A program made the translations under genes and the position numbers. A stretch of DNA of 64,000 bases from Eledone cirrhosa. Its lineage: Eukaryota. Positions 31,787 through 54,683 of this stretch are shown here, piece after piece. The notes under the pieces were generated by a model, which was given only the letters and a program-made list of their open reading frames with translations, was not told where the DNA came from and searched no databases. Position 1 is the first letter of the stretch. Each line of letters begins with the position of its first letter. Location: NCBI GenBank assembly GCA_964016885.1, contig OZ024743.1:181164001-181228000 (forward strand), written 5' to 3'.

Positions 31787-31836
<50 letters not shown>
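31787..31836. repeat. (GATA)n spacer between the tandem Tx1B copies
   Basis: Direct reading. Confidence 0.95.
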
Positions 31837-32074: not shown

Positions 32075-35000
32075 CTACAGGCTGATATAGAGAGAAGGCC
32101 CATTCACTCGGGCCATTCTCGCCACTTTCACCCACCTTTCATAAAACTTGCTGCGGTACAGCACCTCTCTCTCCATCCTGATTCTTCTTCCAAAGTGGTA
32201 TTTGAAAAAAAGAATCAGTTGTTGGCCGGAGAGAAAGGTGTCTGACCTCAGCCCTTTCAACCTTGTCCACCATACAACCTCTTTCGCCATAGCTATCACA
32301 CAAAGGAAAACCGCCTCTCCTTCGTTTTTGAAGGAGGGTGGCGGTTTGATCATGACAATGGACTCGGTGGTCAACTGGATTGGTCCCACCCGCGACAATA
32401 GTCGTTCTACATATCCCCACAGGTCAGTGACGCCCGGGCAGTGTATGAATGCGTGCGCGACGGTTTCTTCGTCTCGCACGCACCTCGGACAGATCTTTTT
32501 TGCAGGGTCCCTGCCCGGGCGCCCATGTCTGTAGAGCTTGTCTCGAACTGGTAGAGCTCCTCGGTAGCACTGCCAGGCCAGGGACTTTTGGAAGTTGTCC
32601 ATCGGTCCCGGGCGGAAGGTCCCACCGAACAGACTGGCCAGTTCATCTTCCTCCACGCCTAGAGTTTCACCGAGCGCGTCGTCGCACTTGCTGCGGACCA
32701 ACCCTCTATAGAATGACGAAGTGGAGTCTCCACTGATCGCCGGGTCCGCCTGCCAGAGGGCTGTGAGCGCCTGAGCACATTCGATGTGCCAGTCGCCCAT
32801 TTTCCTCGGTCTCTGCTTGACCCAGGACTGCAGCTCGGTCAGTGAGACGAGTCGTGGGAAGGCTCGCCTCACGAACGGGGCCCACACCGGTTGTCCGGTG
32901 AGGAATACGTAGAGATGCCGCAGCCTGAGCGCGTGTTTGCGCATCGTCAACCACGGCATCCCCAGCCCTCCGTTAGAAGGGTGTTGGCAGCAGATGGATC
33001 TTCTTACCAAAGGAGCCCGCCTCTTCCAAAGGAATCGGAAGAGGGCGCGCTCCATTTTGGCGAGCGTTTTGGCTGGACAAGGCACGACGGTCAAGCGGTA
33101 GTAGATGGCGGACGCTATAAAAGTGTTCGCCACCTCCGCTCGACCTTTCAAGGATAGTTTGCACTCGGCCCACTTCTGGGTGAGTGCAAACACCTTGGCC
33201 GTCACTTCGTTCCAGTTCTTCTCCACCTGGAGGTCCGGACCAAACCAGACCCCGAGCAGCTTTACCGGTCCTTCCGTCCAGCGTCCGACGACGCCATCGG
33301 AAGGCATCGGTCTGCCTCTCCACGATCCGAGTTGCAAACCGATGGACTTGTCCCGGTTCAGCTTCGCTCCTGTGAGACTTTCGTATTCCTTTAGTAAGGT
33401 GCCGACTTTCTCGATTTGCGAGGCGCTCGACACCATTACTGTCACGTCGTCGGCGTAGGCCGACGCCGCTTTCCGCAGTCCCGGTTCCAGAGGGATGCCC
33501 TGCAATAGCTCCAGCTTCCGCAGTAGTGGCTCGAGAGTCAGTACGTACAGAAGGGAGGAGAGAGGGCATCCCTGTCGAATGGATCGCGTAATATGGAACG
33601 GCTCCGAGAGGTAACCGTTCACCTTGACCCTTGAGCAGATGTTGCTGTTGTGCATTGCAGCAATCCAGCCCCTGAACACGGGTCCGAAGCCTGCCGCCTC
33701 GAGCACCGCATACAGGTAACGATGGTCAACCCTATCGAAAGCCTTAGACTGATCCAAGTTGATCAGGGCCCCACCGAAGCCGGGTTTACACCCTACCCTC
33801 TCTATGATGTATCGCATGAGGTGGAGGTTGTCGTGTATGGACCTGGTCGGGATCGCGCATGTCTGCGCTTCTCCCACCAGGTTCTCGACGACAAGCGCCA
33901 GCCTCTTTGCCAACACCTTGGCCAAAATCTGTAACTCTGTGTTTAGCAGAGTTATGGGCCGGAAGTTGCCTATGTCATCCCCCTTATTCTCGTCCTTCCT
34001 GATTAGTGTGACCACGCCCCCGGTTACAGAACTGGGAATTCTCCCGTTCTGTTGCCAGTTGCAGTAGACCGCTTCCAGGAGACCGGAGAATAAGTCCGGC
34101 ATTGCTACGTAAAATTCGTAGGGTAGACCGTCGAGACCTGGAGATTTGCGTTTGCCGCATTGGCTCAGCGCGTCCCCTATCTCAGTGGCTGAAATCGGCT
34201 TTTCGCAGAACTTCGCCTCGCTGTCCGAGAGTCGCGGTAGGCCGTCGAGGTATGGACCGAAATCCATAGCCTCTCCCGGCGCGCCGCTCCCCCCGAACAG
34301 CCGAGCAAAGTGCCGCTGAAAAGCCGCACACATCTGCTTCGGCTCACGTATCACGCGTCCGTTTTGGTCCTTCAAAGACCGAATCGTGGACTTGTTGCCA
34401 CTTTTTGCCTCCGTCACTCGGGCCCAGCTAACAGCTTTGGCTCCCTCGTTTCCCAGAGCACGTATTTTGCTTCTGACAACGCAGCCCTCGTGCTTTGCGT
34501 CGAAGAACTGGTCCAAGGCCGTTCTCGTTGCTAGCACGCTGGCTACGTTGCCACTTCTAATAGCCTCTTCTACTTTATCTACCAGTTCCTTCTCGGTTCT
34601 ATTTCTATCTAACGCTAATTCTTTACTAAAAACTATCGAGTCTAATCTAACTGCCCTCTTGAGAGAGTACCACCATCTGTTGTTGACAATGGCCCCTGTC
34701 AAGTGCTGTTTAACTAAAGTGCTAATCCGTCTACTGTAGGCTTTGCTTGTCGGTAACGACAAGTTCAGCTTCCAGTAGCCGGGTCCTTGTCTATGGGTTC
34801 TATCAAGGTTGGCCATGCAGGTCACTAGTTTGTGATCCGAATAGGGAACCATGAACATTTGTGGACAGCTTAACATGTCCCTATCCTTATTTCTAACTAG
34901 AACCCTATCTAGGTACGATCTAGATGTTCCGCTACGATTACTCCACGTCCACAGTGGCGCAGTCGGAAAATCTAGTCGATATCTATCGGCCAGGTCAAAT

Positions 35001-35512
35001 CGGTCGATTAACTGTTTGAGGCTGTTACACCCCCCTTTATCGGGACATGCTCCCACATAGTCCCAACGTGCATCTAGGATTCCATTCCAGTCCCCCACTA
35101 AAAGCAAGGAGCGGGACGTTCCCAGAAAAGTCTCTAGACGTTTGAAGAAGTCTGGCCGCGGTGTCCCGGACGGGGCATATGCGGCCACCAGCCTGAACGC
35201 TCCACCTTCACTACCGTCAACGTCTAGGACCACCAGTCGACCCTCCGGGTCCAGATGTACCGTCTGTGTTACGAGGCCCAGGTGTTTCCGCAGCAAAACG
35301 GCAACTCCGCCCCCACCCCCCGGTTGACAGAGAGATGCGTAGATCTCAAAGTCATCGAAGATGGGGGCCAGCTGTCGCTCGCCGTGGATCCTGGACTCGC
35401 AAATGGCTACCACATCCAAACTGTGCGACCTGAGGTCGTTTAAGAGTTTGCCCTGTTTCCAGGGCATCCCCAGGCCGCGTACGTTCACACATCCAACTCT
35501 TATATTGGCCAT
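32075..35512 (-). CDS. Tx1B ORF2: APE endonuclease + reverse transcriptase + C-terminal zinc finger (1145 aa)
   Basis: NVRGL, AICES, GDWN, YLDR, SDH; KSPGLDG, FRPITLLN, DQSKAFD, RQGCPLS, AYADD, GGLG; CPRC..ETVAHAFIHC. Confidence 0.95.
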   Translation of the reverse strand: MANIRVGCVNVRGLGMPWKQGKLLNDLRSHSLDVVAICESRIHGERQLAPIFDDFEIYASLCQPGGGGGVAVLLRKHLGLVTQTVHLDPEGRLVVLDVDGSEGGAFRLVAAYAPSGTPRPDFFKRLETFLGTSRSLLLVGDWNGILDARWDYVGACPDKGGCNSLKQLIDRFDLADRYRLDFPTAPLWTWSNRSGTSRSYLDRVLVRNKDRDMLSCPQMFMVPYSDHKLVTCMANLDRTHRQGPGYWKLNLSLPTSKAYSRRISTLVKQHLTGAIVNNRWWYSLKRAVRLDSIVFSKELALDRNRTEKELVDKVEEAIRSGNVASVLATRTALDQFFDAKHEGCVVRSKIRALGNEGAKAVSWARVTEAKSGNKSTIRSLKDQNGRVIREPKQMCAAFQRHFARLFGGSGAPGEAMDFGPYLDGLPRLSDSEAKFCEKPISATEIGDALSQCGKRKSPGLDGLPYEFYVAMPDLFSGLLEAVYCNWQQNGRIPSSVTGGVVTLIRKDENKGDDIGNFRPITLLNTELQILAKVLAKRLALVVENLVGEAQTCAIPTRSIHDNLHLMRYIIERVGCKPGFGGALINLDQSKAFDRVDHRYLYAVLEAAGFGPVFRGWIAAMHNSNICSRVKVNGYLSEPFHITRSIRQGCPLSSLLYVLTLEPLLRKLELLQGIPLEPGLRKAASAYADDVTVMVSSASQIEKVGTLLKEYESLTGAKLNRDKSIGLQLGSWRGRPMPSDGVVGRWTEGPVKLLGVWFGPDLQVEKNWNEVTAKVFALTQKWAECKLSLKGRAEVANTFIASAIYYRLTVVPCPAKTLAKMERALFRFLWKRRAPLVRRSICCQHPSNGGLGMPWLTMRKHALRLRHLYVFLTGQPVWAPFVRRAFPRLVSLTELQSWVKQRPRKMGDWHIECAQALTALWQADPAISGDSTSSFYRGLVRSKCDDALGETLGVEEDELASLFGGTFRPGPMDNFQKSLAWQCYRGALPVRDKLYRHGRPGRDPAKKICPRCVRDEETVAHAFIHCPGVTDLWGYVERLLSRVGPIQLTTESIVMIKPPPSFKNEGEAVFLCVIAMAKEVVWWTRLKGLRSDTFLSGQQLILFFKYHFGRRIRMEREVLYRSKFYERWVKVARMARVNGPSLYISL

Positions 35513-35545
35513 GTTGGTGCTGAAAAGTTAAAAGAGGAAAAGAGA

Positions 35546-37444
35546 TCACTCACCCTTCGCCTCCTGGGGACCAGGCCGCACGATTTCCATGGGGGTGTTG
35601 GAGGGGTTGTCTGGATGGGTGGTGGTTTCCGGCGGGGTGGGGACGCAGATGTTTGGTGGGGTGGGGTCTGGTGGGATGGGGGTGTCTGGGGTGGGGAGGC
35701 ATTTGAGAAGGACGCGGTTGAGTGGTTTCACGCAGGAATTCCCCACATCCTTCTCAAATGTTTCTTTTAGGGACCTATAAGTTTGTATAGGGACCCTAAT
35801 CAGTTTTAGGTTCATTTTTTTGCTATTTTTTATAGAGTGGGCAAAAGTTTTCCCTTCGTTCGTAATGGTCTCCATTAGTGTTTTGTTTTCAGTGTTTATG
35901 TAAGTGTAAGTGTAATTTTCTTGTGTTGTGTTTGTTTTTGTCTGTAGTTCTTGTGTGTGCTTTCGTTTTGTTGTAGGTATTTTGTTTACAGGAGGTGGGG
36001 GTTTTGTTTGTGATATTTTTGTTGTTTGTGTTGGTGGTTGTATGTTTGTGGTAGTGTTTGCTGGTTTTTTGCTTTTGTGATGTCTTTTCTTTCTTTTCGA
36101 GCGATGGGGTTCTCCCTCGTCTTCACTGGGTGATGGCGAGATAGCCTCATCTGTTGTATCGTCTGTGTGATTGGGGAGGGGTATGTCTTGGGGAGCTGTT
36201 GTGTCTGTATGTGATTTTGCAGTGGTTTTAGGTGGAGTGAGGTTGGGTGGGACTGTGTTTGTTGTGGTTATTTTTGTGTGTTGGTGTTGTTGTTGTAGTG
36301 GTGGTGTTGGTGGTTGTGTTGTTTTGATGGGTGTTGGCAGAAGAGCCTTTTTTTGGTTCATTAGTTTAGGACAGGAAGCCCTCAGGTGACCCCTGCTAAA
36401 GCAATGGTAACATGAAGGCCGCCTACCCTCAACCGAAAGGTTTATGTAGGTAAGTCCGTCCAGGAGTACACGCTGTGGGATCATAGCTATTCGCTCTGGG
36501 CTCATTTGCACCAGAACTTCAATGCTAGTCCCATTGAATACATCTCTGGGGGACTTGCCTACTGACAGTATTCTGTCTTCATCAAAATTGATGAAGCCGC
36601 ACAGTATCCACCATATGTTCACCTTTGGTGTGACACTTGTGATTCTGATCTTTTGTGTCCTTTTTTCCATGTATGTAGGGAAAAAGGTGTACAGGTTGGA
36701 TACAATTGGCGACACAGAGTAATTTTGGGCCGTCAATTGATCCTTCATCAGTACCGAAATACTCCCAAAAAGTTTACTTCTTTGAATGAATGCAATATCA
36801 TTCATTGAATCTTTGAAAACCAGTTCAATATCTTTCTGTGACAATTGGACTGGTTTTCGGGTAGAATTGGAAACTGTCCTAAAAACTATCGTTTTGAGAG
36901 CAGTTTCCTTGCGAATTTCTACCGGAGAATTGATGCTGAAAGCACCATTTTTTTCGAAGGTGACATATCTCTTAGCGTCCTTTAAAAGGTGTTCAGCATT
37001 TGTTATGTCGAGATATATCAATTGTTCTTTCTTTTGAACTTTCTCCGCAAAGGAGATTTTTGGTTTCTTTGTGGAATCCGTATTGGTGGTGTTGTCATTA
37101 TTGTTGTTATTCTTGTTTTTATTCTTGTTGTCACCGATGTTGGTATCATCCGTATTTTCCTTGGTGTTGTTGTTGTCTTTGATGCTGGTGTTATTGGCGT
37201 TGTCTTTATTTTTTTCTTTGTTGTTGTTATCATTGTTGCTTTTATCATCATTATTGGTTTTGCTGTTATTTTTGTTGTCATTGAGCTGTTTGGTGTCATT
37301 TGTGTTGTTTGGATGTGAATTCGTTTTTTTATTTTCATTTTGTCTTTCCATCTCTATAGTATCTAGTGAAGAAGACGTTGTTGACTGCGAGCTTTGTAGT
37401 CTTACCGCCTCTCCACCACCATTATCGTTGGACGCAGCGTTCAT
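35546..37444 (-). CDS. Tx1B ORF1 (632 aa), CCHC zinc knuckle
   Basis: CYHCFSRGHLRASC; N/T/P-rich low-complexity flanks; lies immediately upstream of ORF2. Confidence 0.88.
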   Translation of the reverse strand: MNAASNDNGGGEAVRLQSSQSTTSSSLDTIEMERQNENKKTNSHPNNTNDTKQLNDNKNNSKTNNDDKSNNDNNNKEKNKDNANNTSIKDNNNTKENTDDTNIGDNKNKNKNNNNNDNTTNTDSTKKPKISFAEKVQKKEQLIYLDITNAEHLLKDAKRYVTFEKNGAFSINSPVEIRKETALKTIVFRTVSNSTRKPVQLSQKDIELVFKDSMNDIAFIQRSKLFGSISVLMKDQLTAQNYSVSPIVSNLYTFFPTYMEKRTQKIRITSVTPKVNIWWILCGFINFDEDRILSVGKSPRDVFNGTSIEVLVQMSPERIAMIPQRVLLDGLTYINLSVEGRRPSCYHCFSRGHLRASCPKLMNQKKALLPTPIKTTQPPTPPLQQQHQHTKITTTNTVPPNLTPPKTTAKSHTDTTAPQDIPLPNHTDDTTDEAISPSPSEDEGEPHRSKRKKRHHKSKKPANTTTNIQPPTQTTKISQTKPPPPVNKIPTTKRKHTQELQTKTNTTQENYTYTYINTENKTLMETITNEGKTFAHSIKNSKKMNLKLIRVPIQTYRSLKETFEKDVGNSCVKPLNRVLLKCLPTPDTPIPPDPTPPNICVPTPPETTTHPDNPSNTPMEIVRPGPQEAKGE

Positions 37445-37662
37445 AATGTAATCAAAATTTTACAATATTTTTTCCAAGATTCGATGGAGAAACATTTTTT
37501 AAATGGATATTCCGCCCCTGTAGGGGTGAAAATGAGTTGACCCATCACCTGAAGGTCCAGACGGGTGGTCAAGTTACACAATGATATAAAATTTAACTAA
37601 AAACTCACGTTTTTTTCTTACATAAATTAACGGAAACTTCTCCGCGAAGTGACACGCGTCTA

Positions 37663-37810
<148 letters not shown>

Positions 37811-38074
37811 TGTGTGTGCCAGTCGACACGTCTGTTCGTCCGTAGTAGTGTCAAAATTGCCACGAGGCGTGTTTATTTCATGTCTTTTAATAGTGAAGCT
37901 TATCAAGTAATTTCAAGTAGGAATTAAAGTGGACGTTTTACGTGAGACCCTAAGAGAGAATATTCTATCGTTCGAAAAGAAGAGGACATATACTTTTGAT
38001 ATGTGTGTTTTTAAATCAGATGTTGTCTGAATTCAAGTTTCGGTTATTTTCTTCAAGTTATATACCAATCTTAT

Positions 38075-38620
38075 ACATATCGTCATTTCAATCTATTTAA
38101 AATTATATCGTTATTTTGTCCCCGATTGATCCGGTTGGACTCCAGGCGAGACAAATTCAGCTGATGGATGTTATCCAACCATCTCACTCGGGATCCATCT
38201 ATGGATCGATCCCTTGCTAGTTGGTTTTGCCCGTAAAATCTGTCCAGCGATTCTTGCCTGAAACATTCTAACCACATGCCCATAGTATCGGAGCTGTGAT
38301 CTCTCAATTTGGAGAAGTAACAGCTCTACCTGGAGTAACTCTCTGATATCCGAGCTAGGCACTTTATAGAGTAACGTTACTCCAAAGCCTCTTTGGAAGA
38401 ATCCCATTCCAGCCTCTTGTATTCGTGATCATATTCTTTTGGCCATTACCCACGATTCATGACCATGGGTTGGCATGAATATCGAATTGAAGTCTTTGGC
38501 TGTTACACCTACCTCACTTCTTTTGATGATCGAGTGCTGAAGCTGACGTTCACTGCACCAGCGCCTGCAATTCTTGCACTAAATTCTACATCCTGCCTTT
38601 CAGTTTTACCTTAGATGAAA
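38075..38620 (-). pseudogene. RTE-clade LINE 3' fragment
   Basis: RIQEAGMGFFQR..DIRELLQV..IERSQLRYYGHVVRM..RVRWLDNI matches the RTE C-terminal LRWxGHVxRM / RWxD motifs. Confidence 0.7.
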
Positions 38621-38669
38621 GTTCATAACATGCTCATCATTTTTTTCATTATGATGACATATCGACAAT

Positions 38670-38926
38670 AATGACGATGACGATGGTCATGACGATGATT
38701 GCGATGTTGAAAATGACGATGAAAATTACGATGAAAACGACGATAAAAATGACGATGAAGTGACGATGAAAATGACAATGAAAGTGACGATAAAAATGAC
38801 GATGAAAGTTGCAATGAAAATGACGATGAAAAGACGAGGAAAAGACGAGGAAAACGACGATGAAAATGACGATGAAAATGACGATGAAAATAACGATGAA
38901 AATTACGATGAAAATGACGATGAAAA
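38670..38926. repeat. 12-bp minisatellite (GACGATGAAAAT)n
   Basis: Direct reading. Confidence 0.9.
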
Positions 38927-39042
38927 AGAGTTTATTGTCGCTGATTGAGAAAGTAAAATATTAATGCTCCTGATATCTAACCAATAAATAAAATAGAGTT
39001 TAAAACTATTACTAGCACCATCAATATTACAGTATCGATTTT

Positions 39043-39058
39043 ATCTCTCTCTCTCCCC

Positions 39059-39096
<38 letters not shown>

Positions 39097-39322
39097 ATCA
39101 CACTCTCTCTCTCTATCACTCTCTCTCTCTCTCTATCTCTATCTCTTTCTCTTTCTCTTTCTCTTTCTCTTTCTCTTTCTCTTTCTATCTCTCTGTCCCT
39201 TTCTCGCTCTCTCTCTTTCTCTCTCTCTCTCACTCTCTCTCTCCCCCGTTCTCCCTCCCTCTCTCTCTTTCTCTCTCGTTCTCCCTCTCTCTCTCTCTCT
39301 CACTCCCCCCCCCCTCTCTCTC
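39043..39322. repeat. (CT)n microsatellite
   Basis: Direct reading. Confidence 0.95.
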
Positions 39323-39544
39323 TAACAAATCTGGTTGTGTGAGGCTATAGATCTCATGAAGAATCATTAAAATTAGTGTTCGGTTTTCTTCTTGTTCTTG
39401 TTGTTTTCTTGTTTTTGTTGTTGTTGTTGTTGTTTTTGTTTGTTTGTTTATTTCATTTCTGGGTTATTTTACTTTGTTTTGTTTTTGTCATAATTGTTTT
39501 CTTTCTTTTATTTATATATATATATATATATAAATATATATATA

Positions 39545-40192
39545 TAAACGGAAAAAATGAAACGAAATTTCATTTCTCACTCTTAGTACGGCTGTTACTT
39601 AAATATAAGTATGTATACGTACATACATATATGTATACAGACGTACAGTAGTATGTATATATATATATATACATACATGCACATATATATATATGTACGT
39701 ATGGATTCACCGAACATTTATTATAATGGTCGGTGTGTTTGTAAACAAACATCCCGAATTAAGCCGTACAGTGTCTAGCAACCATCGTTGCTCATTTGTT
39801 CAACACTGACAAAAGAACACTGTGCTAGTTTCAAGCTTATTAGCTCTCGTCAGCAACGTATACCTTCCTGACAGATGGTTGAACGTCTGAAAGTATATAC
39901 TTTCCTCGTGCATATTAACGGCTTAGCAGCCTAATTTGCATATCGAGTGAGTTAATCGGCCGGGGTAGCGAAAACGATAAACGGAAAAAATGAAACGAAA
40001 TTTCATTTCTCACTCTTAGTACGGCTGTTACTTAAATATAAATATATATACGTACATACATATATGTATACAGACTACATTATAATAAATGTTCGGTGAA
40101 TCCATACGTACATATATATATATGTGCATGTATGTATATATCTATACATACTACTGTACATCTGTATACATATATATATGTACGTATACATA

Positions 40193-40200
<8 letters not shown>
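39545..40200 (-). mobile_element. Penelope-like pLTR cluster: direct repeat (about 39545-39645 / 39978-40078) plus inverted repeat (about 39605-39726 / 40078-40200)
   Basis: AAACGGAAAAAATGAAACGAAATTTC..GTTACTTAAATATA twice; TTCACCGAACATTTATTATAATG mirrored; embedded in (TA)n. Confidence 0.65.
39818..39858 (-). ncRNA. Minimal hammerhead motif (Penelope type), one stem III substitution
   Basis: Minus strand CGTTG-CTGACGA-GAGCT AATA AGCTT-GAAA-CTAGCA-CAGTG. Confidence 0.6.
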
Positions 40201-40262
<62 letters not shown>

Positions 40263-40329
40263 TTATCTGTTACTTGGTATAATTATTATTATTACGATAT
40301 TGGAAACGTTCATATATAGAAATGGCAAA

Positions 40330-40685
40330 ACCAACAACACCAACAACAACACCAACAACAATAACAACACCAACAACAACACCAACATCAATAACAACAC
40401 CAACAACACCAACAACAACACCAACAACAACACCAACAACAACACCAACAACAACACCAACAGCAATAACAACGCCAACAACACCAACAACAACACCAAC
40501 AACAACACCAACAACAATAACAACACCAACAACACCAACACCAACAACACCAACAACAATAACAACACCAACAACACCAACAACACCACCAACAGCAGCA
40601 ATAGCAGCAGCAACAACAACAACAACAATAACAACACCAACAACACCAACAACAACAACAACAACACCACCGACAACAACAAAAA
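40330..40685. repeat. (AAC/ACC)n trinucleotide satellite; expanded second copy at 43178-43925
   Basis: Direct reading. Confidence 0.95.
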
Positions 40686-40845
40686 CTAAAGATATGTTCA
40701 GAAGGGAAAAAGACTGAATTTTCTGGTCAGGTATTTTTAAAGAAAAGAGAATGAGGCATTAAGGTTAGTTTTAATTTGTTTACAAATTAGAATAATGATT
40801 GAAGCGACAGATAAAATTGATGGAATATTCTCTCAAATAGCAGCA

Positions 40846-40878
<33 letters not shown>

Positions 40879-40909
40879 GCAGCAGCTTCTTATTATTATT
40901 ATTATTATT

Positions 40910-43173
40910 GTTGTTGTTATTCCTTGAATCTCAGTCATTGATGTTGGTTAACTGGAAAGTCCGTTGGATTGAATATCAAGCCACTACCTGCAGCCTCAGA
41001 TATTCAGGACGTATCGGAGGGTTCTTGCTGTTCCAAGCAAGCATGCCTTTTGAAGCGTTCCAAAAAGTGTGAAGGAGCCGATTTTCTTTAACCATCCCTG
41101 GAAACTTTTGGAGATAGTCCCCAGTGCGCCTATGACAATCGGGATCACTTTGACTTCATGGCAGTTCCAAATCCTTTTCACCTCCCACTTTAGGTCCTGG
41201 TATCGGTTAATTTTCTCCCTCTCCTTCTCTTGCACTCTCGTGTCGAACGGGCAGGCCACATCCACAATCAGACACGATCTTTTTTCTTTGTCCACAACCA
41301 CCAGGTCAGGTCTATTGTGTTCCAGTTTTTTGTCCGTCTGTATCCTAAAATCCCACAGCACCTTCACCTGATCGTTCTCCATCACCGCCTCTGGCCTATG
41401 CTCATACCATTTCTCAGAATGTGGTAAATTGTTTACTTTGCACAGGTGCCAGTGGATCACCCTGCCCATCACATCGTGTCTCCAGCCCTTATAGTGGGTC
41501 TGGGCTAGGTGTTTACACTCGGACACAATGTGAGCCACAGTCTCCTCTCTCTCTCCACAGATCCTGCACAGTGGGCTAGCCTCCTCCTTGTAAATATGGT
41601 GCTTCAACCACTTCGTTTTGAGGGCCTGCTCCTGCGCAACCATTAGCATTCCTTCTGTAGCCTTTTTGAGGTCTCCTCTTCTCAACCAGTGGATCTCTAA
41701 ATCTGTTTTCTCAAAGAAGGTACTATGAAGGGATTTTCCCTTAAGGCTACTCTTCCTCCTTGATGTTATTTCCTCCTTGGACATCCCCTGGCCTACTGTC
41801 CCCTCCTTCAGTACAGCTCTGAGCATTGGCTCCTTACTATAAGTCACGTATTTGTATAGGTTGTTTTTCTCCATCCGAACACAGTCCTCTATGCTGATAA
41901 GACCTCTTCCACCCTCAGATCTCCTTAGGTAGAGTCTATCGACATCACTCCTCTTGTGGAACATGTTGTAGATAGTCAATAGCTTCCTAGTCTTCCTATC
42001 CATTTCTTTTTGTTCAGCAACATTCCATCTCAGAATTCCCGCACTGTACCTAATAATAGACACAGCTCGGGAATTTACAGCGCTTATGGCATTTCTGCTG
42101 TTCAGATGTGACTTCAATACGCTCCTTACTCTCCGAATGTATTCAGTTCTTAACAATTCCTTCATTTTTTTGTTCTTTATGCCATCAGCCTCCAGAACGC
42201 CCAAATACTTGTATCCTTCCTCAGAGTCAATTTCCTTTATCATCTCACCTGTTGGTATCTGGATCCCGTTACTTCTGCTCAACCTACCCCTCCTCATCAC
42301 AATGACTCCACATTTACCAATACCAAACTGCATACATATATCACTGCTGAAAATACGGACAGTGTCAACAAGCACATCCAACTCCTTCTCGCTTTTCCCG
42401 AAGAGCTTAAGATCGTCCATGAAGAGGAGGTGATTGATGGTAAGCTCTCCCCTTCCCAACTTGTATCCTGCTCTCACTTTTCGCAGCATGATGGTCAAGG
42501 GCATCAGGGCAAGGACAAACAACAGAGGGGACAGGCTATCTCCCTGGAAGATACCTCTCTTGATCTTCACGCTTCCCAAGGATACTCCAGTTGATGTCAA
42601 CTCTGTCTCCCAGGACCCCATACTCCTGCCCAGCAGCTGTCTGATGTTATCTGCCACCCTGAAGATCTCCAGGCTTTTGGTGATCCAAGAATGAGGCACC
42701 ATGTCAAATGCCTTTCTGTAGTCTATCCATCCCATGGCAAGATCAGTGTGTCTCCTCCTGCAATTCCCCATTACCATCTTATCAATAAGTAACTGGTCCT
42801 TTGTACCACGTGACTTCTTTCGGCATCCTTTCTGTTCGTCCGGTAACAAGTTGTTTGTGTGGAGGTGATGGTAGATTTCCTCAGACACAATGCTCGTCAA
42901 CAGTTTCCACATTACGGACAGACATGTGATAGGTCTATAGTTGGTAACATCATTACCCTTGATTCGGTCTTTCATTATCAGAACTGTGGTACCTTTTGTC
43001 AACCACTCTGGCACCTCACCCGACACCAAGCAGTCATTGAACATGGCCGTCAGCTTCGGGTGGAGGGATGTTAAATGTTTAATCCAATACCCCTGCACAC
43101 CATCTGGGCCTGGTGATTTCCAGTTGGTTAGTTTTGGGGCCTGCCCCTTAAGAGTTTCAACTGTGATACTCAA
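40910..43173 (-). mobile_element. R4/Dong subfamily B, 5'-truncated copy (RT-CCHC-RLE still in one frame)
   Basis: C-terminal part of ORF 40996-43920 matches the intact copy; 3' end abuts (GCA)n(ATT)n. Confidence 0.92.
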
Positions 43174-43763
43174 CAGGAATAACAACACCAACAACACCAA
43201 CAACAACACCAACAACAATAACAACACCAACAACAACACCAACAACAACACCAACATCAATAACAACACCAACAACACCAACAACAACACCAACAACAAC
43301 ACCAACAACAACACCAACAGCAATAACAACGCCAACAACACCAACAACAACACCAACAACAATAACAACACCAACAACACCAACACCAAAAACAATAACA
43401 CCAACAACACCAACAACAATAACAACACCAACAACACCAACAACACCACCAACAGCAGCAATAGCAGCAGCAACAACAACAACAACAATAACAACACCAA
43501 CAACACCAACAACAACACCAACAACAACATCAACAACAACACCAACAACAACACCAACAACAACAACAATAACAACACCAACAACAACACCAAAAACAAC
43601 AACAATAACAACAACACCAACAACAACACCAACAACAATAACAACACCATCAACACCACCAACAGCAGCAATAGCAGCAGCAACAACAACACCAACAATA
43701 ACAACAACAACAATAACAGCAGCAGCAATAACAACAACGACTCCACCAACAACAACAACACCT

Positions 43764-43796
<33 letters not shown>

Positions 43797-44123
43797 GCAG
43801 CAGCAACAACAACACCAATAACACCAACAACAACAACAACAACAACAACAATAACAACAACAACACCAACAACAACAATAACAACACGAATAACAACAAC
43901 AACACCACCGACAACAACAAAAACTAAAGATATGTTCAGAAGGGAAAAAGACTGAATTTTCTGGTCAGGTATTTTTAAAGAAAAGAGAATGAGGCATTAA
44001 GGTTAGTTTTAATTTGTTTACAAATTAGAATAATGATTGAAGCGACAGATAAAATTGATGGAATATTCTCTCAAATAGCAGCAGCAGCAGTAGCAGCTTC
44101 TTCTTATTATTATTATTATTATT

Positions 44124-47100
44124 GTTGTTATTCCTTGAATCTCAGTCATTGATGTTGGTTAACTGGAAAGTCCGTTGGATTGAATATCAAGCCACTACCT
44201 GCAGCCTCAGATATTCAGGACGTATCGGAGGGTTCTTGCTGTTCCAAGCAAGCATGCCTTTTGAAGCGTTCCAAAAAGCGTGAAGGGGCCGATTTTCTTT
44301 AACCATCCCTGGAAACTTTTGGAGATAGTCCCCAGTTCGCCTATGACAATCGGATCACTTTGACTTCATGGCAGTTCCAAATCCTTTTCACCTCCCACTT
44401 TAGGTCCTGGTATCAGTTAATTTTCTCCCTCTCCTTCTCTTGCACTCTCGTGTCGAACGGGCAGGCCACATCCACAATCAGACACGATCTTTTTTCTTTG
44501 TCCACAACCACCAGGTCAAGTCTATTGTGTTCCAGTTTTTTGTCCGTCTGTACCCTAAAATCCCACAGCACCTTCACCTGATCGTTCTCCATCACCGCCT
44601 CTGGCCTATGCTCATACCATTTCTCAGAATGTGGTAAATTGTTTACTTTGCACAGGTGCCAGTGGATCACCCTGCCCATCACATCGTGTCTCCAGCCCTT
44701 GTAGTGGGTCTGGGCTAGGTGTTTACACTCGGACACAATGTGAGCCACAGTCTCCTCTCTCTCTCCACAGATCCTGCACAGTGGGCTAGCCTCCTCCTTG
44801 TAGATATGGTGCTTCAACCACTTCGTTTTGAGGGCCTGCTCCTGCGCAGCCATTAGCATTCCTTCTGTAGCCTTTTTGAGGTCTCCTCTTCTCAACCAGT
44901 TCCATGTCTGTGGATCTCTAAATTCAGTTTTCTCAAAGAAGGTACTATGAAGGGATTTTCCCTTAAGGCTGCTCTTCCTCCTTGATGTTATTTCCTCCTT
45001 GGACATCCCCTGGCCTACTGTCCCCTCCTTCAGTACAGTTCTGAGCATTGGCTCCTTACTATAGGTCACGTATTTGTATAGGTTGTTTTTCTCCATCTGA
45101 ACACAGTCCTCTATGCTGATAAGACCTCTTCCACCCTCAGATCTCCTTAGGTAGAGTCTATCGACATCACTCCTCTTGTGGAACATGTTGTAGATAGTCA
45201 ATAGCTTCCTAGTCTTCCTATCCATTTCTTTTTGTTCAGTAACATTCCATCTCAGAATTCCCGCACTGTACCTAATAATAGACACAGCTCGGGAATTTAC
45301 TGCGCTTATGGCATTTCTGCTGTTCAGATGTGACTTCAATACGCTCCTTACTCTCCGAATGTATTCAGTTCTTAACAATTCCTTCATTTTTTTGTTCTTT
45401 ATGCCATCAGCCTCCAGAACGCCCAAATACTTGTATCCTTCCTCAGAGTCAATTTCCTTTATCATCTCACCTGTTGGTATCTGGATCCCGTTACTTCTGT
45501 TCAACCTACCCCTCTTCATCACAATGACTCCACATTTACCAATACCAAACTGCATACATATATCACTGCTGAAAATACGGACAGTGTCAACAAGCACATC
45601 CAACTCCTTCTCGCTTTTCCCGAAGAGCTTAAGTTCGTCCATGAATAGGAGGTGATTGATGGTAAGCTCTCCCCTTCCCAACTTGTATCCTGCTCTCACT
45701 TTTCGCAGCATAATGGTCAAGGGCATCAGGGCAAGGACAAACAACAGAGGGGACAGGCTATCTCCCTGGAAGATACCTCTCTTGATCTTCACGCTTCCCA
45801 AGGATACTCCAGCTGATGTCAACTCTGTCTCCCAGGACCCCATACTCCTGCCTAGCAACTGTCTGATGTTATCTGCCACCCTGAAGATCTCCAGGCTTTT
45901 GGTGATCCAAGAATGAGGCACCATGTCAAATGCCTTTCTGTAGTCTATCCATCCCATGGCAAGATCAGTGTGTCTCCTCCTGCAATTCCCCATTACCATC
46001 TTATCAATAAGTAACTGGTCCTTTGTACCACGTGACTTCTTTCGGCATCCTTTCTGTTCGTCCGGTAACAAGTTGTTTGTGTGGAGGTGATGGTAGATTT
46101 CCTCAGACACAATGCTCGTCAACAGTTTCCACATTACGGACAGACATGTGATAGGTCTATAGTTGGTAACATCATTACCCTTGATTCGGTCTTTCATTAT
46201 CAGAACTGTGGTACCTTTTGTCAACCACTCTGGCACCTCACCCGACACCAAGCAGTCATTGAACATGGCCGTCAGCTTCGGGTGGAGGGATGTTAAATGT
46301 TTAATCCAATACCCCTGCACACCATCTGGGCCTGGTGATTTCCAGTTGGTTAGTTTTTTGGCCTGCCCCTTAAGAGTTTCAACTGTGATACTCAAATCAG
46401 CTTGTTGTTGTGCCTGCTCACCGATCTCCCTCTGTACTGTCTCAATCCACCCTGCCTGGACATTATGTCTAACATCCTGCTCCCATATTCCTCTCCAGAA
46501 TGTTTTAGTTTGCTCCGCCCCAGGGATCAAGTCGTTGCCTCTTTCTTTCCCCTCAAGCTGTCCAAACAGCATCTTCTGGTTGTTGTCGAAATGCGGTTCT
46601 GTTTATACTGACTGACTCTGTTCTCGTATCGCCTGATTTTTGCACTCTTTGCTACAATGCGTTGCTTCAGTTCCTCTATGGTAATATTTAGCTTTTTCCT
46701 CCTAGTTTTGTATTTTATTTCCAGTCTATTTTTAGTGCCTATGTTTTTTAGTGTCCCATTCAGTAGTGACTCAAGCTTTCCTATGTCATTTCTCATTTCC
46801 CCGATTTGCCCACTCAGTCGCTTCTTCCACCACGGCTCTGCTCTTTCTTGTCTGTTGTTTCCTCTCGCTTTTATACCAAGTAGTTTCCTCACCGTATTTG
46901 CTGTTGCTTTGAGGATATTGTTGCACTGGTGAAGGCTCCTCTCCTCAAGGTATGGGATGACTTTGTTTACCTTAGCTGTTGTTTCTTTTAACTTTTTCCT
47001 GTCTACAAATCTTAGGTTCATAGGTCTCCCACTATCATTGTTCAATTCATCTACCACTAAATTTAGGATGTCAACCGAATCTTGTCCTAGCACGTCAGCA

Positions 47101-48676
47101 TTCATCTCCTCAGTGGCCGTATCTCTGTTCCATGTATTATTTATCTCAGTATTCAGATCATTGTCTGCTTCGGGTGGTTCCTCCGTTCTCAGGACCTCTT
47201 CACCTTCATTTCCCACTGGCTCGCTTGTCTGGCATACTACACCCGCCATCTCCAAGCCATTCTCTCTGCTCAGTTCCTCCAGTTCCAGCTCGCTTATCCA
47301 CCCATTAGTTCTTATTACCCGAGCCTGCCCGGCCAATTTTTGTTCATCTAATTTAAATAAACCAATCTCGTTCCAGATGTTATGCATCCGTCTCCTGTAG
47401 CCCCTCTCCTTGGGGTTACTTTTCAGGTAACATTGCATGACAGTTCTATTTAATTCTTTCGTCCAGTTGGTTCTGGCCCCTTTCCTTCTTCTCCTTCCTC
47501 CAACATCAGCAGTATTTGGTTGACAGTCAGGTTCCTGCTGCTGAGCCAGGGGGCACCTGTTGGGTGAGAGTCTGTCACATGACGTTCTAGTCTCCATTTC
47601 ACCGTTATTCGAACTGTTTATGTTCGATATTTAAACACTCTTATCGAGGATTGGCGAATGTATGGTTACATAGCCATCTGTGGATCCGCCATTCCACTTG
47701 GCCCTTGTGTGGCATTATCACCACTATGTATACGAACATACATAAACAAATAAACACACAGGCAGAAAGGGCCCCAAAAATGAATAAGTATAAGTTTCAT
47801 TGTAATGTAGTGTTCGAATGTCTGACTTAGTTTTTGTTTTTTAAGTTTTAGTTTTTCCCCCTCTTCTCTGTCCGTCCGCCTGCTTCTCTCTTCATTCTTA
47901 TTTTCTTTACGCTTTTTGGGTTGTTTTTTTTGTTTTTGTTTTGGTTTTTCTCTGTTTGTTTTTCTCGTTTTTTGCTGTTGTTGCTGTGCTGCTTTGGTTT
48001 TGTTGTTTGTTTTTTCTTTTTTCTTTTGAGTCTATTTATATATTTTGATGCCTTCCTCTTTTTTAGTAGTAGGGATTCTATAATGTGGTGGCAGCAGCCA
48101 GCTGGGAGAAGTGGGTGACTGGCGGCGGTAGCGATACTGAGACAGTGGTGGTGGTGATGTCGATACCGAGGCAGTGGTGGCGGTGATGTGACCGTATTAC
48201 TGTAGTGATGGTGCTGTAGCGGTGGTAGCAGTGAAGGAGTGAAGGGCTGGTGGCGGCGGTGATGGGATAATGGTGGTAATGATGGCCGTAGTGAGCGGTG
48301 GTGGTGAAAATGCCGTTATCTGGCTGTTGTGTTTAGTGTACACAGGTGATAAGGTGGGTGGTGTATCTAGTTTCTGGTGTTGGTGAGTTTGGCTGTTCTA
48401 TATAGTGTAGACAGAGGAGAGGAGGGGGGGGTTCTTCTTCCATTTATAGCCATTTTCTTTTTTGGATATACAGTGTACAATACAAAGTTGAATATTTGAA
48501 TATTTGAGCCTTATAACAATATATTTGGGGTCCGAATTTTTTGGGGGCTCAAGCCGGGTGCTTTACGTAGCATTTGTACTAAGAGTTGTTATTTCACAAA
48601 TGATTTAAATATGTTAAAAATTCAAAACTTACGGGAGCGATTTCATGACCTCCGCCACCTCGTGCGTCTTCTTCCC
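44124..48676 (-). mobile_element. R4/Dong subfamily B, full length with the longest 5' end; ORF (44207-47597) disrupted
   Basis: Frameshift near 46590, FMDD->FMDE, premature stop at 44413; (ATT)n at both ends. Confidence 0.93.
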
Positions 48677-48737
<61 letters not shown>

Positions 48738-48944
48738 GGCGACCTACTTAGTAAATCGTATCATCGTGAGCTCCGCAAAGGTTTGTTATTTCCGTTTGTT
48801 AAAAATTGTCATTTATGGAAAATTTTATTGTTAACTGTTTATAAGCGCACATACATTGTTTTCCGAAAAGGACACCCAAAAAGATTGGGGCCTTGTGCCC
48901 AAAATTTTAACTTTTATTATTATCCAAAAATTTCTTTGAAAAAA

Positions 48945-50946
48945 ATGGCTAATTCCCCTCTGCACGAAGCAGCTGAAAGCCTTCCTCACAAAATAACACC
49001 TCACACCGACACCACCATTGTAAATGTTACTACTTTTGCCAACACAAAAAAAAATATAAGCAGTAGCAATATTTTAAATTTGTCTCAGGCAGACATTCAT
49101 TTCCCGCCATTACCAATGACTGCAGGTGTTAAAGCCTCCACCACCACCACCAGCGCGACAACCACCACCCCCACCACCACCGCGACAACAGAAACAAAAG
49201 AAGAAAAAAATAAATTAACTCGTGATGTCGAAATGAAATCAAGCAAAATGGACTCTTCCGCACCAAAGACGAATGACGTCACCACCACCACAACTGAAAC
49301 AAAAATTAAGATTAACACAAATAACGATAGCAACAACAACAACAATGACATTATAAAACCGACCCTCAGTTTCGCCATCGTAGCAAAACAATTCGAAGCG
49401 TTCACGGTAACTCAAGAAGATTTAGAAAATGCCAAACAAATGGTAAAGAAAGATGGGTACAGGGTCAGCCTCACCCCCCCCCCCCCCCACCTAATAAAAT
49501 GGAGCATCGGCGCCTGTGCACCGTGTCGTATAGAACAATAAATGTAAAATCGCGCCGAGTGGAACGGGCATCCGAGTCCCAAATCCAAAAAGCTTTGGGA
49601 CATGTGTGGGCAAGAAAAACCCACATCAGACGTGGGCAAAAGTATGGAACCGTGGATGTGTTCTTTGAAACACCAGAGGAGGCTAGAGAACACTCCATGG
49701 CCCCATTAAAAAGTGACGACCTCACACTCGTCCCAAGCTATTGTGGCCAGAGACTCGTAAAGATCAGGGTCACCCACGTTCCACCGGCCATCGAAATTCC
49801 CTGGCTAATAGCGGCTGTCCTCGCCGGCATCGAAGCCAACACGAAAATAATAGCAGTAGCAAAAGAAAAGCAGGAAAACTGGTCCGGATCTGGGATGGAG
49901 CTCCTGATCCAAGCGGACCAAAAAAGCATTGAGGAGATCCCAGAGGTAATAGACCTCACTGACGGCAGACACCTCACGGTAATTGTCGAGGGCAGAAGAC
50001 CTAGGTGTGTCGTTTGTGGTGAAGGAACCCACCTAAGGGCTTTCTGCCCTCAGGCTAAAAGGTTGAGGCCACCTCTCCTACCCACCCCAGTGACACAACC
50101 ATCAACACCACCAGTAGCAGAGATGGCAGCAACAACTGTAGCAGCAACAACAGAAGCAACTATAACAGCAACAAACCCAGCAACAGTAGCAAAACCAACA
50201 CCACTACCACCACCAGCAAAACCAACACCACCACCACCCAACGCTTCAGAACTAGCACCAGCGCCTACACCATCCACCACACCACAACCAAAACTAACGG
50301 CTGTGGAGGATTTTCCACTCCCCGGCCTATCACAACTGGATACAGATTGTGACGACGAGGAGTGCGAAACGATATCCGGAAAAAAAAAAGAAACCAAAAA
50401 AGAAAAAATTCTCTTCCTTCCCCCTCCAAAAACAAAATACAGAGGGAAACAAATAAACTAAGAAACAAAAAAGTTAGGACAGATATGCCACCATCCACAC
50501 CAGCATCACCAACCCCATCAACCCAAACACCAACACCATCACCATCATTAACTCCAACACCACCATCACCTACACCACAAAAGTCACCAAAATGCGAAAC
50601 AGAAACAAACCCAAAACAAACGCAAACAAAAGAAAACAACCAAAACGATACACACTACACAGCATTAAATTTGAACAACAAGCCATTATTACACTACATC
50701 CAACACAACACCAGCATCACAGAAAAAGACTACACAACAACCCAAAAATTCACACCACCTCCACACATACAAATCACTCGCATCACACAGAAAACGTACA
50801 TGACACTAAAACAAAAATTCCCCAAAGACATCGGAGACTTCCGACAAGCACTCTCCAGGAGGATTTATAAGGACATCCTTCCTGAGGAGGCCACAAGCAG
50901 TGAAAAGGATGGAAAAGCCGTCCTTCCCCTACGAGAAGTAAGGTAA
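48945..50946 (+). pseudogene. Tx1A ORF1 with two frameshifts, at or near homopolymer runs (~49480 C-run, ~50385 A-run)
   Basis: Three ORF pieces match 21891-23903; intact knuckle CVVCGEGTHLRAFC. Confidence 0.8.
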
Positions 50947-50980
50947 GTGGTCTTTCCCATCTTTTCCACTCCTTTTCAAC

Positions 50981-53900
50981 ATGACCTCACTCAGAATAGG
51001 CAGCATAAATGCGCGTGGCTTGGGGTCGTCATGGAAGCAGGGCCACCTGCTCAACGACCTCAGGTCACTAAACATAGATGTAGTGGCCATCAGCGAGACC
51101 AGAATCTCCGAAGCACAGGCTTTCGCACCGATCTTTGGCGGCTACGATGTGTACGCATCTCCCAGCCGTCCGGGATCGGGGGGAGGAGTTGCTGTGCTTT
51201 TTCGGAGAGGTTTGGATCTTGCCATACGGGCCATCTTCCTGGACCCAGAAGGTAAGTTGGTGGTGCTGGACGTGACCAGCGGAGACGGGCAAGCTTTCAG
51301 GTTAGTGGCCGTCTATGCCCCGACAGGAGCAGGGCGGCCTGATTTCTTCCGGCGTCTGGAGACCTTTCTTGGAACGTCCCGATCTTTAGTGTTAGTGGGC
51401 GACTGGAACAGGATCTTAGATGCACGCTGGGATTGTGTGGGATTAGTGGATAGGGAAGGAGGGTGCAAGAGTCTCACCAACCTGCTCAGACGTTTTGAAC
51501 TGTCTGACAGGTACCGAATGGATTTCCCGAATGTACCAATGTGGACTTGGACAAATCGTATAGGGTCATCCAGATCATATCTAGATAGAGTATTTTGTAG
51601 GGAAATAGATAGGTCTAGCATAGGCTGTCCACAATTCAAGATAGTCAGCTACACGGACCACAAATTCGTGATCTGTGTGCTTGACTTAGATAGGCTTCAT
51701 AGACGAGGACCCGGCTACTGGAAGCTAAACGCGTCCTTACCAGCGCGCAAGGCCTACAGAGACCGGATTAGCGAACTAGTTAAGCGGGCGTTGACGGGGG
51801 CCATCGTCAACAACAAGTGGTGGTTTGCTCTGAAAAGAGCAATTAGAATAGAGTCCATTAGGTTTAGTAAGACTTTAGCAATAGAGAAAAATAGAGCAGA
51901 GGGAGAATTAGTTAGAAAATTAGATGAGGCGCTTAGCAAAGGCATCGCGACCGACGTACTTGCGGCGAAATTGGCCCTTGACCAATTCTTCAATGCAAAG
52001 CACGAAGGCTGCGTTGTCAGAGCTAGGGTGCGTGCTCTCAGACACGAGGGGACGAAAGCCGTTCAATGGGCCCGAGTGGCGGAGGCGCGTCGTGGCAACA
52101 AAGCCACGATCCGGTCTTTGGTGGACCACGACGGGCGCATGCTACTCGATCCCGGGCAAATGTGTGAAGCTTTTCAGCGACACTTCGCTCAACTGTTCGG
52201 GGGCAGTGGCGGGCCGGATCGAGGGATGGACTTTAGTGTCTACCTCGACGGACTGCCGCGGCTTTCGGCCACTGAGGCGGAGTGTTGCGAAAAGCCGATA
52301 ACAAACGCTGAAGTACGGGATGCAATGACTAGTTGCACAAGGGGTAAATCGCCTGGTTTGGATGGTCTGCCCTATGAACTTTACGTACAAATGCCAAACT
52401 TGTTCGGAGGCCTCTTGGCGGACGTCTACTGCAACTGGCAACAGAACGGGAGAATTCCCAGCTCTGTGAGCCGAGGAGCGGTGGCGCTGCTGAGAAAGGA
52501 TCCGAACAAGGGGGATAACATAGATAATTTTAGGCCCATAACTCTGCTAAACACAGAGTTCAAGATTTTGGCCAAGGTGCTAGCAAAGAGGTTGGCGCTT
52601 GTCGTTGGTGGTCTGGTGGGAGAGGCACAGTCATGCGCCATTCCCGACAGATCCATCCACGACAACCTCCACCTCATGCGATACATCGTAGAGAGGGTAG
52701 CTAGGGAACCTGGCACGGGTGGGTCTTTGATCAATTTAGATCAGTCGAAAGCCTTCGATAGGGTCGACCATCGTTACCTAACGGCAGTCCTGAGGGCGGC
52801 TGGCTTTGGGCCCGTCTTCAGAGGCTGGATCGCTGCCATGCACAGCGACATCTGCTCTGTAGTGAGAGTGAACGGTCACCTTTCGGAACCGTTCAACATC
52901 ATGCGCTCGGTCCGCCAAGGATGTCCTCTCTCGTCCCTATTGTACGTATTGACTCTCGAGCCATTACTGCACAAACTGGAGACGTTGAGGGGGGTCCCGC
53001 GCGAACTAGGATGCGGAAGATCCGTGTCAGCATATGCCGACGATGTCACCGTAGTGGTGTCGAACGCCAAACACATCGAGGCGATCGGCACTACACAAAG
53101 AGAATACGAAGCGGTGACAGGAGCAATGATCAACCAGGAAAAGTCAGTGGGCCTGCAGCTCGGCACCTGGAGAGGCAGGTCCATGCCGTCCAACAGCGTC
53201 GTCGGGCGCTGGACGGACGGACCGGTTAAATTGCTAGGGGTCTGGTTCGGTCCAGACCTCCAGACGGACAAAAACTGGGACGAGGTGACGAGCAGGTTGG
53301 CCTCTCTCACCCAGAAATGGGCCGAGAGGAAGCTATCCCTGAAAGGTCGAGCGGAGGTGGCGAATGCGTACATCGCATCCGTCATCTACTACCGCCTGAC
53401 CGTCGTACCTTGTCCTAAGCCCCGCCTGACTGCGCTGGAGCGTTTGCTCTTTCGCTTCTTGTGGAAGGGACGCGCTCCGATGGTCAGGCGGTCCATCTGC
53501 TGTCAACACCCGCTACGTGGAGGGCTGGGCATGCCGTGGCTGATGATGCGCAGACACGCGCTCAGGCTACGACATCTCCACCTCTTCCTCGACGGTGATC
53601 AGGTGTGGTCGCCGTTTGCAAGACACGTTTTTCCCCAGCTCGTCTCCTTGACGGAGCTGCAGTCCTGGGTCAAGCGAAGACCGAGAGGGAGCGCTTGGAG
53701 ACTGGAATGTCTTCAGGCGCTCACAGCCCTCGACCAATCGGGCAATGTGATCGGTGGAAACTCCACCTTGGCGTTCTATAGGGGATTAGTGGAGGGGAAG
53801 AGCGACGACGTACTTGGAGAAACTCTAGGCGTCGACGAAAATCAACTAGCCAATCTCTTCGGAAGGACTTTCGGGCCGGGGCCTATGGACAACTTCCAGA

Positions 53901-54400
53901 AATCCCTGGCCTGGCAGTGCTACCGAGGAGCTTTGCCAGTTCGGGATAAACTCTACAGGCATGGAGGTGCCGTCAGCCGGGCATGTCCGAGATGCGCGCA
54001 GGGCGACGAAACCGTCCTGCACGCACTCGTCCAGTGTCCGAGCATTGCTGACTTGTGGGTTTATGTCGAGCACCTGCTGTCACGTGTAGGACGGATCCAG
54101 CTATCAGCTGAGTCCATCGTGAGGATTGCCCCGCCCCCTTCCTTTAGCCTGGAAGGGCAGGCAGTTTTTATCTGTCTGGTGGCCATGGCGAAAGAGATAG
54201 TATGGTGGACACGTTTGAAAGGGCTGAAGACGAGCACTTACCTCTTCGGTGATGCCCTGATTAACTTTTTCAAATTTCATTTGAAAAGGAAAATCAGGGT
54301 AGAGAGGGAAGTGCTCTCTTCCCAGCATTTTGTTGAAAGATGGGTGAGAGAAGCAAGTATGGCCCGAATGAATGGGCCTTCTCTGAGTATGTGTCTGTAA
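50981..54400 (+). CDS. Tx1A ORF2: APE endonuclease + RT + zinc finger (1139 aa)
   Basis: NARGL, AISET, GDWN, YLDR, TDH; KSPGLDG, FRPITLLN, DQSKAFD, RQGCPLS, AYADD; CPRC..ETVLHALVQC. Confidence 0.95.
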   Translation: MTSLRIGSINARGLGSSWKQGHLLNDLRSLNIDVVAISETRISEAQAFAPIFGGYDVYASPSRPGSGGGVAVLFRRGLDLAIRAIFLDPEGKLVVLDVTSGDGQAFRLVAVYAPTGAGRPDFFRRLETFLGTSRSLVLVGDWNRILDARWDCVGLVDREGGCKSLTNLLRRFELSDRYRMDFPNVPMWTWTNRIGSSRSYLDRVFCREIDRSSIGCPQFKIVSYTDHKFVICVLDLDRLHRRGPGYWKLNASLPARKAYRDRISELVKRALTGAIVNNKWWFALKRAIRIESIRFSKTLAIEKNRAEGELVRKLDEALSKGIATDVLAAKLALDQFFNAKHEGCVVRARVRALRHEGTKAVQWARVAEARRGNKATIRSLVDHDGRMLLDPGQMCEAFQRHFAQLFGGSGGPDRGMDFSVYLDGLPRLSATEAECCEKPITNAEVRDAMTSCTRGKSPGLDGLPYELYVQMPNLFGGLLADVYCNWQQNGRIPSSVSRGAVALLRKDPNKGDNIDNFRPITLLNTEFKILAKVLAKRLALVVGGLVGEAQSCAIPDRSIHDNLHLMRYIVERVAREPGTGGSLINLDQSKAFDRVDHRYLTAVLRAAGFGPVFRGWIAAMHSDICSVVRVNGHLSEPFNIMRSVRQGCPLSSLLYVLTLEPLLHKLETLRGVPRELGCGRSVSAYADDVTVVVSNAKHIEAIGTTQREYEAVTGAMINQEKSVGLQLGTWRGRSMPSNSVVGRWTDGPVKLLGVWFGPDLQTDKNWDEVTSRLASLTQKWAERKLSLKGRAEVANAYIASVIYYRLTVVPCPKPRLTALERLLFRFLWKGRAPMVRRSICCQHPLRGGLGMPWLMMRRHALRLRHLHLFLDGDQVWSPFARHVFPQLVSLTELQSWVKRRPRGSAWRLECLQALTALDQSGNVIGGNSTLAFYRGLVEGKSDDVLGETLGVDENQLANLFGRTFGPGPMDNFQKSLAWQCYRGALPVRDKLYRHGGAVSRACPRCAQGDETVLHALVQCPSIADLWVYVEHLLSRVGRIQLSAESIVRIAPPPSFSLEGQAVFICLVAMAKEIVWWTRLKGLKTSTYLFGDALINFFKFHLKRKIRVEREVLSSQHFVERWVREASMARMNGPSLSMCL

Positions 54401-54642: not shown

Positions 54643-54683
<41 letters not shown>

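Follow-up and report, generated by a model that had tools for sequence, protein, structure and literature searches.

Introduction

Sibling retrotransposons of the Tx1 clade that insert in different microsatellites are already known from fish and crocodilians. In teleosts, the microsatellite-specific families Kibi and Koshi insert in (TC)n and (TTC)n, respectively, and crocodilian Tx1 families insert in (TTCC)n/(TTTC)n; this work treats a family as target-specific when one sequence type is found in more than 20% of its flanks (PMC4494074). Two APE LINEs of the R1 clade, SART1 and TRAS1, insert in opposite strands of one repeat, that of silkworm telomeres. Their target follows the endonuclease, with help from RNA annealing, which aids priming in both SART1 and R1Bm, and it is stated that integration specificity moved when the SART1 endonuclease was replaced by that of TRAS1 (PMC7265360).

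The human L1 endonuclease prefers TTTT/AA by DNA shape, and L1 has a poly(A) end (PMC1950540, PMC8565326). In the L1-DNA structure, recognition is spread over many residues and the few base contacts are made by Pro197, His198 and Asn118; Pro197 contacts the +1 base pair in the minor groove, and the hairpin, as described there, does not read the primer side of the nick (PMC8565326). Recognition by R1Bm is cooperative and likewise spread over many residues, with Y98 at the position of N118 (PMC1919474). Hairpins grafted onto L1 did not transfer specificity in the experiments that PMC1950540 describes: L1 with the Tx1L loop did not gain cleavage at the site of Tx1L, and the pattern of point mutants was unchanged.

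Here we describe two elements, Tx1A and Tx1B, that lie on (ATT)n and (TATC)n, respectively, within a 64-kb stretch of Eledone cirrhosa DNA, all of which is called the window below. Like Kibi, Koshi and the crocodilian families, they represent related APE-type families on different microsatellites, with a change of target between close lineages. Unlike Kibi and Koshi, which are defined by (TC)n and (TTC)n, their main targets are ATT and TATC, and it is by target only that we set them apart. As with SART1 and TRAS1, two APE LINEs are compared; those two use opposite strands of one repeat (PMC7265360), whereas Tx1A and Tx1B use two repeats, with endonucleases that are 62% identical. They share with the human L1 endonuclease and the LTx/LR1 hairpin grafts the same fold, the same hairpin length and the catalytic residues, but they end directly on the microsatellite instead of on poly(A). 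In Octopus vulgaris, 13 recently active L1-Tx1 families have been described (PMC13282606), in a paper whose main text does not contain the word "target"; these are probably the same as or related to the Tx1A and Tx1B families. Our literature searches turned up no description of cephalopod Tx1 elements that are specific for ATT or TATC, although such families may be listed in Repbase, subscription journals or supplements.

Results

We presume that Tx1A and Tx1B belong to the Tx1 clade, a label taken from an earlier sequence-only reading of the window and from their motifs. Homolog searches returned no match named Tx1L, Keno, Kibi or Koshi, and the named homologs are from Octopus sinensis and Argonauta hians. 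One O. sinensis gene model, "tectonic-3-like" (P0001), contains about 60 aa of Tx1 endonuclease, which is either exonised or mis-predicted. The features of APE-type non-LTR elements of the L1 group are all present: two ORFs, 5' truncations, variable target-site duplications and, in both ORF2s, an N-terminal APE domain, RT and a C-terminal zinc-binding region, with Pfam Exo_endo_phos, RVT_1 and zf-RVT above cut-off. The closest endonuclease by sequence and fold is L1-EN; the top Foldseek matches (1VYB, 2V0R, 2V0S, 7N8S) come from a search with an earlier model that had pLDDT <50 over the hairpin.

Full-length Tx1A (ATT clade) occupies 48738..54643 of the forward strand (5906 bp, ends set by 30 genomic copies each) between (ATT)n flanks at 48677..48737 and 54644..54683. 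Its ORF1, with a zinc-knuckle-like CxxC...HxxxxC motif, lies in three frames in this copy (48945..50946, frameshifted), and its ORF2 (50981..54400) is open, encoding 1139 aa. Full-length Tx1B (TATC clade) lies on the reverse strand at 31837..37662, with ends taken from genomic copies; both ORF1 (35546..37444, 632 aa) and ORF2 (32075..35512, 1145 aa) are open. Its 5' (TATC)n flank is at 37663..37810, and its 3' flank (31786..31836) is also the 5' flank of a second Tx1B copy that follows in tandem (25958..31785, reverse strand, 3' boundary approximate); this copy is degraded and 96% identical. There is also a second Tx1A copy preceded by (ATT)n, of which only the 5' part is present, ending early in ORF2 (21682..24005, forward strand).

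Other repeats share the window. About five RT elements of about 4 kb, which we take to be HERO-like, lie on the same (ATT)n tracts in the opposite strand (59011-62436, 44413-47630, 55516-58100, 15365-18795 and 40996-43173, reverse strand); they have no APE domain and carry a C-terminal restriction-like motif, so that two unrelated nuclease types are found on one repeat. Two truncated Tx1A copies (L087, L129) run directly into HERO-like sequence in antisense orientation, without intervening ATT. The window also contains a long TA-rich minisatellite with 30-43-bp units (7844-10187) and an AAC tract of 248 copies (43181-43924).

When we compared the two elements, we found the ORF2 proteins to be colinear, as the sequence-only reading had described them: every block and both hairpin sequences it quoted are present, and 785 of 1145 positions are identical (69%). 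Its wording "closely related" is generous, because 92 of the 240 endonuclease positions differ (148 identical, 62%, as compared to 75% in RT). The ORF1 proteins are highly divergent, as it had said, being homologous yet 27% identical over 442 aa (E 1e-34), and so are the 5'UTRs, whose alignment (125/250) is no better than that of shuffles (mean 0.51).

The flanks had been seen to differ, ATT versus TATC, and the same difference is present across the genome. We searched the 3.0-Gb genome with each element end and inspected 30 loci per end among the best 40 of 366-1785 candidates; the 5' sets contain the window's own copies (one A, two B). All 30 Tx1A 5' flanks are (ATT)n and all 30 Tx1B 5' flanks are (TATC)n, where more than 20% of one sequence type defines a target-specific family, and the 5' junction is in a single phase in 29/30 cases for each element. 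At the 3' end, among 30 loci inspected per element from the best 40, the flanks are ATT in 30/30 for A and TATC-like in 29/30 for B. This pattern is not chance. A pattern for the 3' end common to both clades has 26,119 matches genome-wide; in the first 100, counted by eye, we saw only two flank classes: all 38 A/E-type ends adjoin ATT, and the 62 B-type ends adjoin TCT-containing sequence (57), ATT (1) or other sequence (4).

At the new junction of 5'-truncated copies, TATC-clade elements adjoin TATC/TC in 36 cases, other sequence in nine and ATT in none, and ATT-clade elements adjoin ATT in five cases, other sequence in four and TATC in none (after exclusion of 23 rows in which the deletion was internal or a short match was spurious). 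When ends were picked so that the DNA downstream was not repeat (1,041 B-type and 610 A-type matches, of which 100 of each type were listed), most nevertheless began with TATCT(AT) or ATTAT(T). Because the 5'-truncated copies and the target-site duplications carry the cognate repeat, the repeats are targets and not tails. Thus, Tx1A inserts into ATT repeats and Tx1B into TATC repeats across the genome, which is real and well supported.

A minority of B-clade 3' ends adjoin (TC)n, some with TATC on the 5' side. We considered a third, (TC)n-specific family and rejected it, as the (TC)n-flanked ends inspected belong to TATC-clade families. In three B-clade copies (L189, L214, L218) with (TC)n(TA)n on the 3' side and TATC on the 5' side, the microsatellite was possibly altered after insertion. 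Separately, 5' truncation within 1.5 kb is found in 21/30 B and 3/30 A copies among the best 3'UTR matches (L061-L120; p 3e-6), samples that were picked by identity.

To place the nick, we used target-site duplications, which are 8-22 bp long. The sets, 19 from the B clade and 10 clean ones from the A clade, are small, hand-curated and chosen for imperfect repeats; many other copies in the same listings showed no duplication, and those at L206, L311 and L316 were excluded as not clearly at the Tx1 junction. Insertions start two bases past the terminal AATAAAGAAA, in one phase, at ATTATT (Tx1A clade) or TATCTA(T) (Tx1B clade). Together with the duplications, this start and phase indicate bottom-strand nicks at 5'-AATAAT/N (A) and 5'-TAGATA/GAT (B). 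The part of the target that is best conserved (ATTATT or TATCTA) falls on the primer side, which the L1 hairpin does not read (PMC8565326). Immediately left of the nick, 17/19 B-clade duplications have C (mostly sites within tracts, and 3/4 outside tracts), whereas the 10 A-clade duplications are mixed (T5, C4, A1), and the +1 base in Tx1A sites is G in 4/10. Three insertions (L251 TATAAAT, L234 AATCTAT, L330 GTTATT) have a non-cognate first unit on both sides of the duplication, so that RNA did not serve as the source of a repeat unit at these sites. One young truncated B copy (L119) has a duplication of about 80 bp, as compared to the usual 8-22 bp. In full-length A copies with short 3' repeats we found no unique duplication, which may be due to later insertions.

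To relate target to descent, we compared 23 copies, which fall by their flanks into three ATT families (A/A2, E, D) and six TATC families (B, C1-C5). Trees of EN, RT and CTD each have one change of target (support 100/100, 94/96 and 99). Once outgroups are added, EN, thumb+CTD and whole ORF2 place the root between the two clades; RT does not, but this conflict is not significant. The A endonuclease is closer to those of E (90% in EN) and D (68%) than to that of B; A and B are therefore not a close pair, and each represents one of two radiations. Since a single branch splits the clades, every fixed difference correlates with target and is confounded with descent. Subfamily A2 (L122, L131, L135, L141) joins the Tx1A ORF2 and 3'UTR to another ORF1 and to a 5'UTR unrelated to that of Tx1A, pointing to a modular exchange of the 5' half. 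Its heads are ATT-flanked in 13/13 cases, and this removes ORF1 and the 5'UTR as the switch.

Two candidate mosaics were dropped. Family D appeared to combine an ATT-type EN with a TATC-type RT, its RT being placed with those of the TATC clade (0.993), yet the data did not reject a monophyletic ATT clade (p-AU 0.264). The 2+2 cross-flank hits that might have been A/B chimeras are B-clade point variants or old degraded copies, and none of the four joins one clade's endonuclease to the other's 3'UTR. Many Tx1 copies genome-wide have open frames of about 1,200 aa, and one head-to-tail array (G000:C2:188052785-188077777) carries five Tx1A-type endonucleases with open ORF2 at a spacing of about 6,085 bp.

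The loop before YLDR, which had been proposed as the seat of the difference, corresponds to the L1 betaB6-betaB5 hairpin. Residues 188-203 (51542..51589, forward strand, in Tx1A; 34904..34951, reverse strand, in Tx1B) form a gap-free alignment with L1 Y191-H206 that places I194 at Pro197 and G195 at His198, although this contact mapping comes from a distant alignment (E about 1e-5). In a model made from a deeper alignment (pLDDT 94.6), the loop, residues 192-197, lies between two short strands, in agreement with that assignment. The loop does differ between Tx1A and Tx1B, with T/S at 191, I/S at 194 (codons 51560-51562, forward, and 34931-34933, reverse) and S/T at 196. Across distinct copies, after one frameshifted D copy was reassigned, residue 194 is I in 80/83 of the ATT clade (V 2, M 1) and S/T in 30/30 of the TATC clade. 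In contrast, T191 (67/82 ATT, 10/31 TATC) and S196 (80/82 ATT, 5/31 TATC) are common to both classes, and the second Tx1B copy in the window combines T191 with S194. Thus, only one of the three hairpin differences tracks target: residue 194, which separates all sampled ATT families from all sampled TATC families. The core NRIGSSRSY is kept across ATT families that are merely 68% identical in EN. A relative from another species that nests in the ATT clade (P0162) has S194 and Y152; its flank was not found in two metagenome scans, and the genome studied here contains no such family (best match 74%).

When we extended the analysis to all of ORF2, we found columns that are disjoint between the clades in EN (36), linker (17), RT (12), thumb (14) and CTD (20), so that 35 endonuclease columns besides 194 track target equally well. 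That the pair isolates a small set of residues is not supported, with two clades one branch apart and 36 EN plus 63 other ORF2 columns tracking. Relative to variable columns, tracking columns are enriched in EN (36/156) as compared to RT (12/177; Fisher p 3e-5) and to the rest of ORF2 (63/518; Fisher p 0.001), and CTD is enriched too (20/110; p 0.004 versus RT). The disjoint EN clusters, at 61-66, 118, 152-159 and 194, lie near L1 K70, N118, R155 and P197, as placed by the distant alignment.

Discussion

We lean, with modest confidence, towards the reading that the endonuclease domain is the main determinant of the target difference and acts through several loops that face the DNA, not the hairpin alone. 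The endonuclease would nick at AATAAT/N or TAGATA/GAT and reverse transcription would be primed from that nick; one ancestral switch would have fixed the changes at residues 61-66, 118, 152-159 and 194, and repeat-like RNA ends would likely add precision, chiefly at the 5' junction of full-length copies. The C to the left of the nick in the B clade counts for the endonuclease, because priming cannot select that base. The junctions of 5'-truncated copies, the three duplications with a non-cognate first unit, the density of tracking columns in EN and the ATT flanks of A2 favour this reading as well, and the stated SART1/TRAS1 swap and the spread recognition in R1Bm and L1 are precedents. Against this endonuclease-led reading, there is a single switch event, CTD is also enriched, and the conserved core coincides with the stretch to which 3' read-through RNA would anneal.

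Such priming could account for that core, and the choice may instead be guided by RNA, a live rival though in our view a rather unlikely one. Both endonucleases would nick AT-rich repeats loosely, and the target would be inherited through the RNA end: the transcript would read through its own repeat and prime only where 5-7 bases pair. The minimal core on the primer side and the mixed A left flank fit this, as do an AATAAA signal about 6 nt from the end with no poly(A) seen and the part that annealing plays in SART1 and R1Bm. In B full-length heads, TCTC is found at repeat unit -2 in 18/35, with other units at most 5/35; a variant in a fixed place makes a repeat-like 5' RNA end at least likely, and such an end would explain the fixed 5' phase. 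However, at L251, L234 and L330 the primer end, or a base close to it, was mismatched, B favours C to the left of the nick, and of all domains the endonuclease is the one most diagnostic of target. Were the target inherited through RNA alone, strays could also found new targets, whereas the first 100 of the 26,119 ends contain two classes only.

That a handful of residues, mainly at the hairpin tip (Ile versus Ser/Thr at the position of L1 Pro197), would convert (AAT)n to (GATA)n nicking is unlikely. If true, this would be a modular switch of the sort that grafting loops onto L1 did not provide. It would occur in two families that are young and apparently active, and would offer a way to retarget LINE insertion. 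Its strictest form, in which the tip is itself the switch (Ile194 for ATT, Ser/Thr194 for TATC), we consider quite unlikely. The near-complete split at 194, its alignment to a base-contacting L1 residue and the conservation of the core across diverged ATT families favour it, but 35 other EN columns track equally, P0162 has S194 within the ATT clade, and L1 grafts were not modular. A also tolerates G at +1, and for this reason we rejected the proposal that Ile194 excludes G there. What is left of the small-switch claim is a single plausible residue in the hairpin, which stands among many changes confounded with descent.

It is improbable that the target is selected or held by ORF2 sequence beyond the endonuclease, for example the C-terminal zinc-finger region, together with a permissive endonuclease. 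The tracking columns of CTD, its long separating branch and a TATC-clade insertion near A residue 996 point that way; against this, the CTD changes may simply follow the diverged 3'UTR, and endonuclease swaps alone are stated to have moved specificity in SART1/TRAS1 (PMC7265360). Finally, it is scarcely credible that the elements carry the repeats only as tails and leaders and insert without sequence specificity, because cores are present in both copies of the target-site duplications and truncated copies adjoin the cognate repeat, even though B has a repeat-like 5' leader and the repeat is missing at 4/9 truncated ATT-clade and 9/45 truncated TATC-clade junctions.

Taken together, these elements bear on how APE endonucleases gain sequence specificity, a question on which structures show few base contacts and loop grafts have not been modular. 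The candidates are cut to 36 columns in about four DNA-facing clusters. The nine families in two clades are a usable test set, in which the phase of the nick is known, ORF2s are open and endonuclease identity between clades is about 60%, and the two clades set up a clean swap of endonuclease versus RNA.
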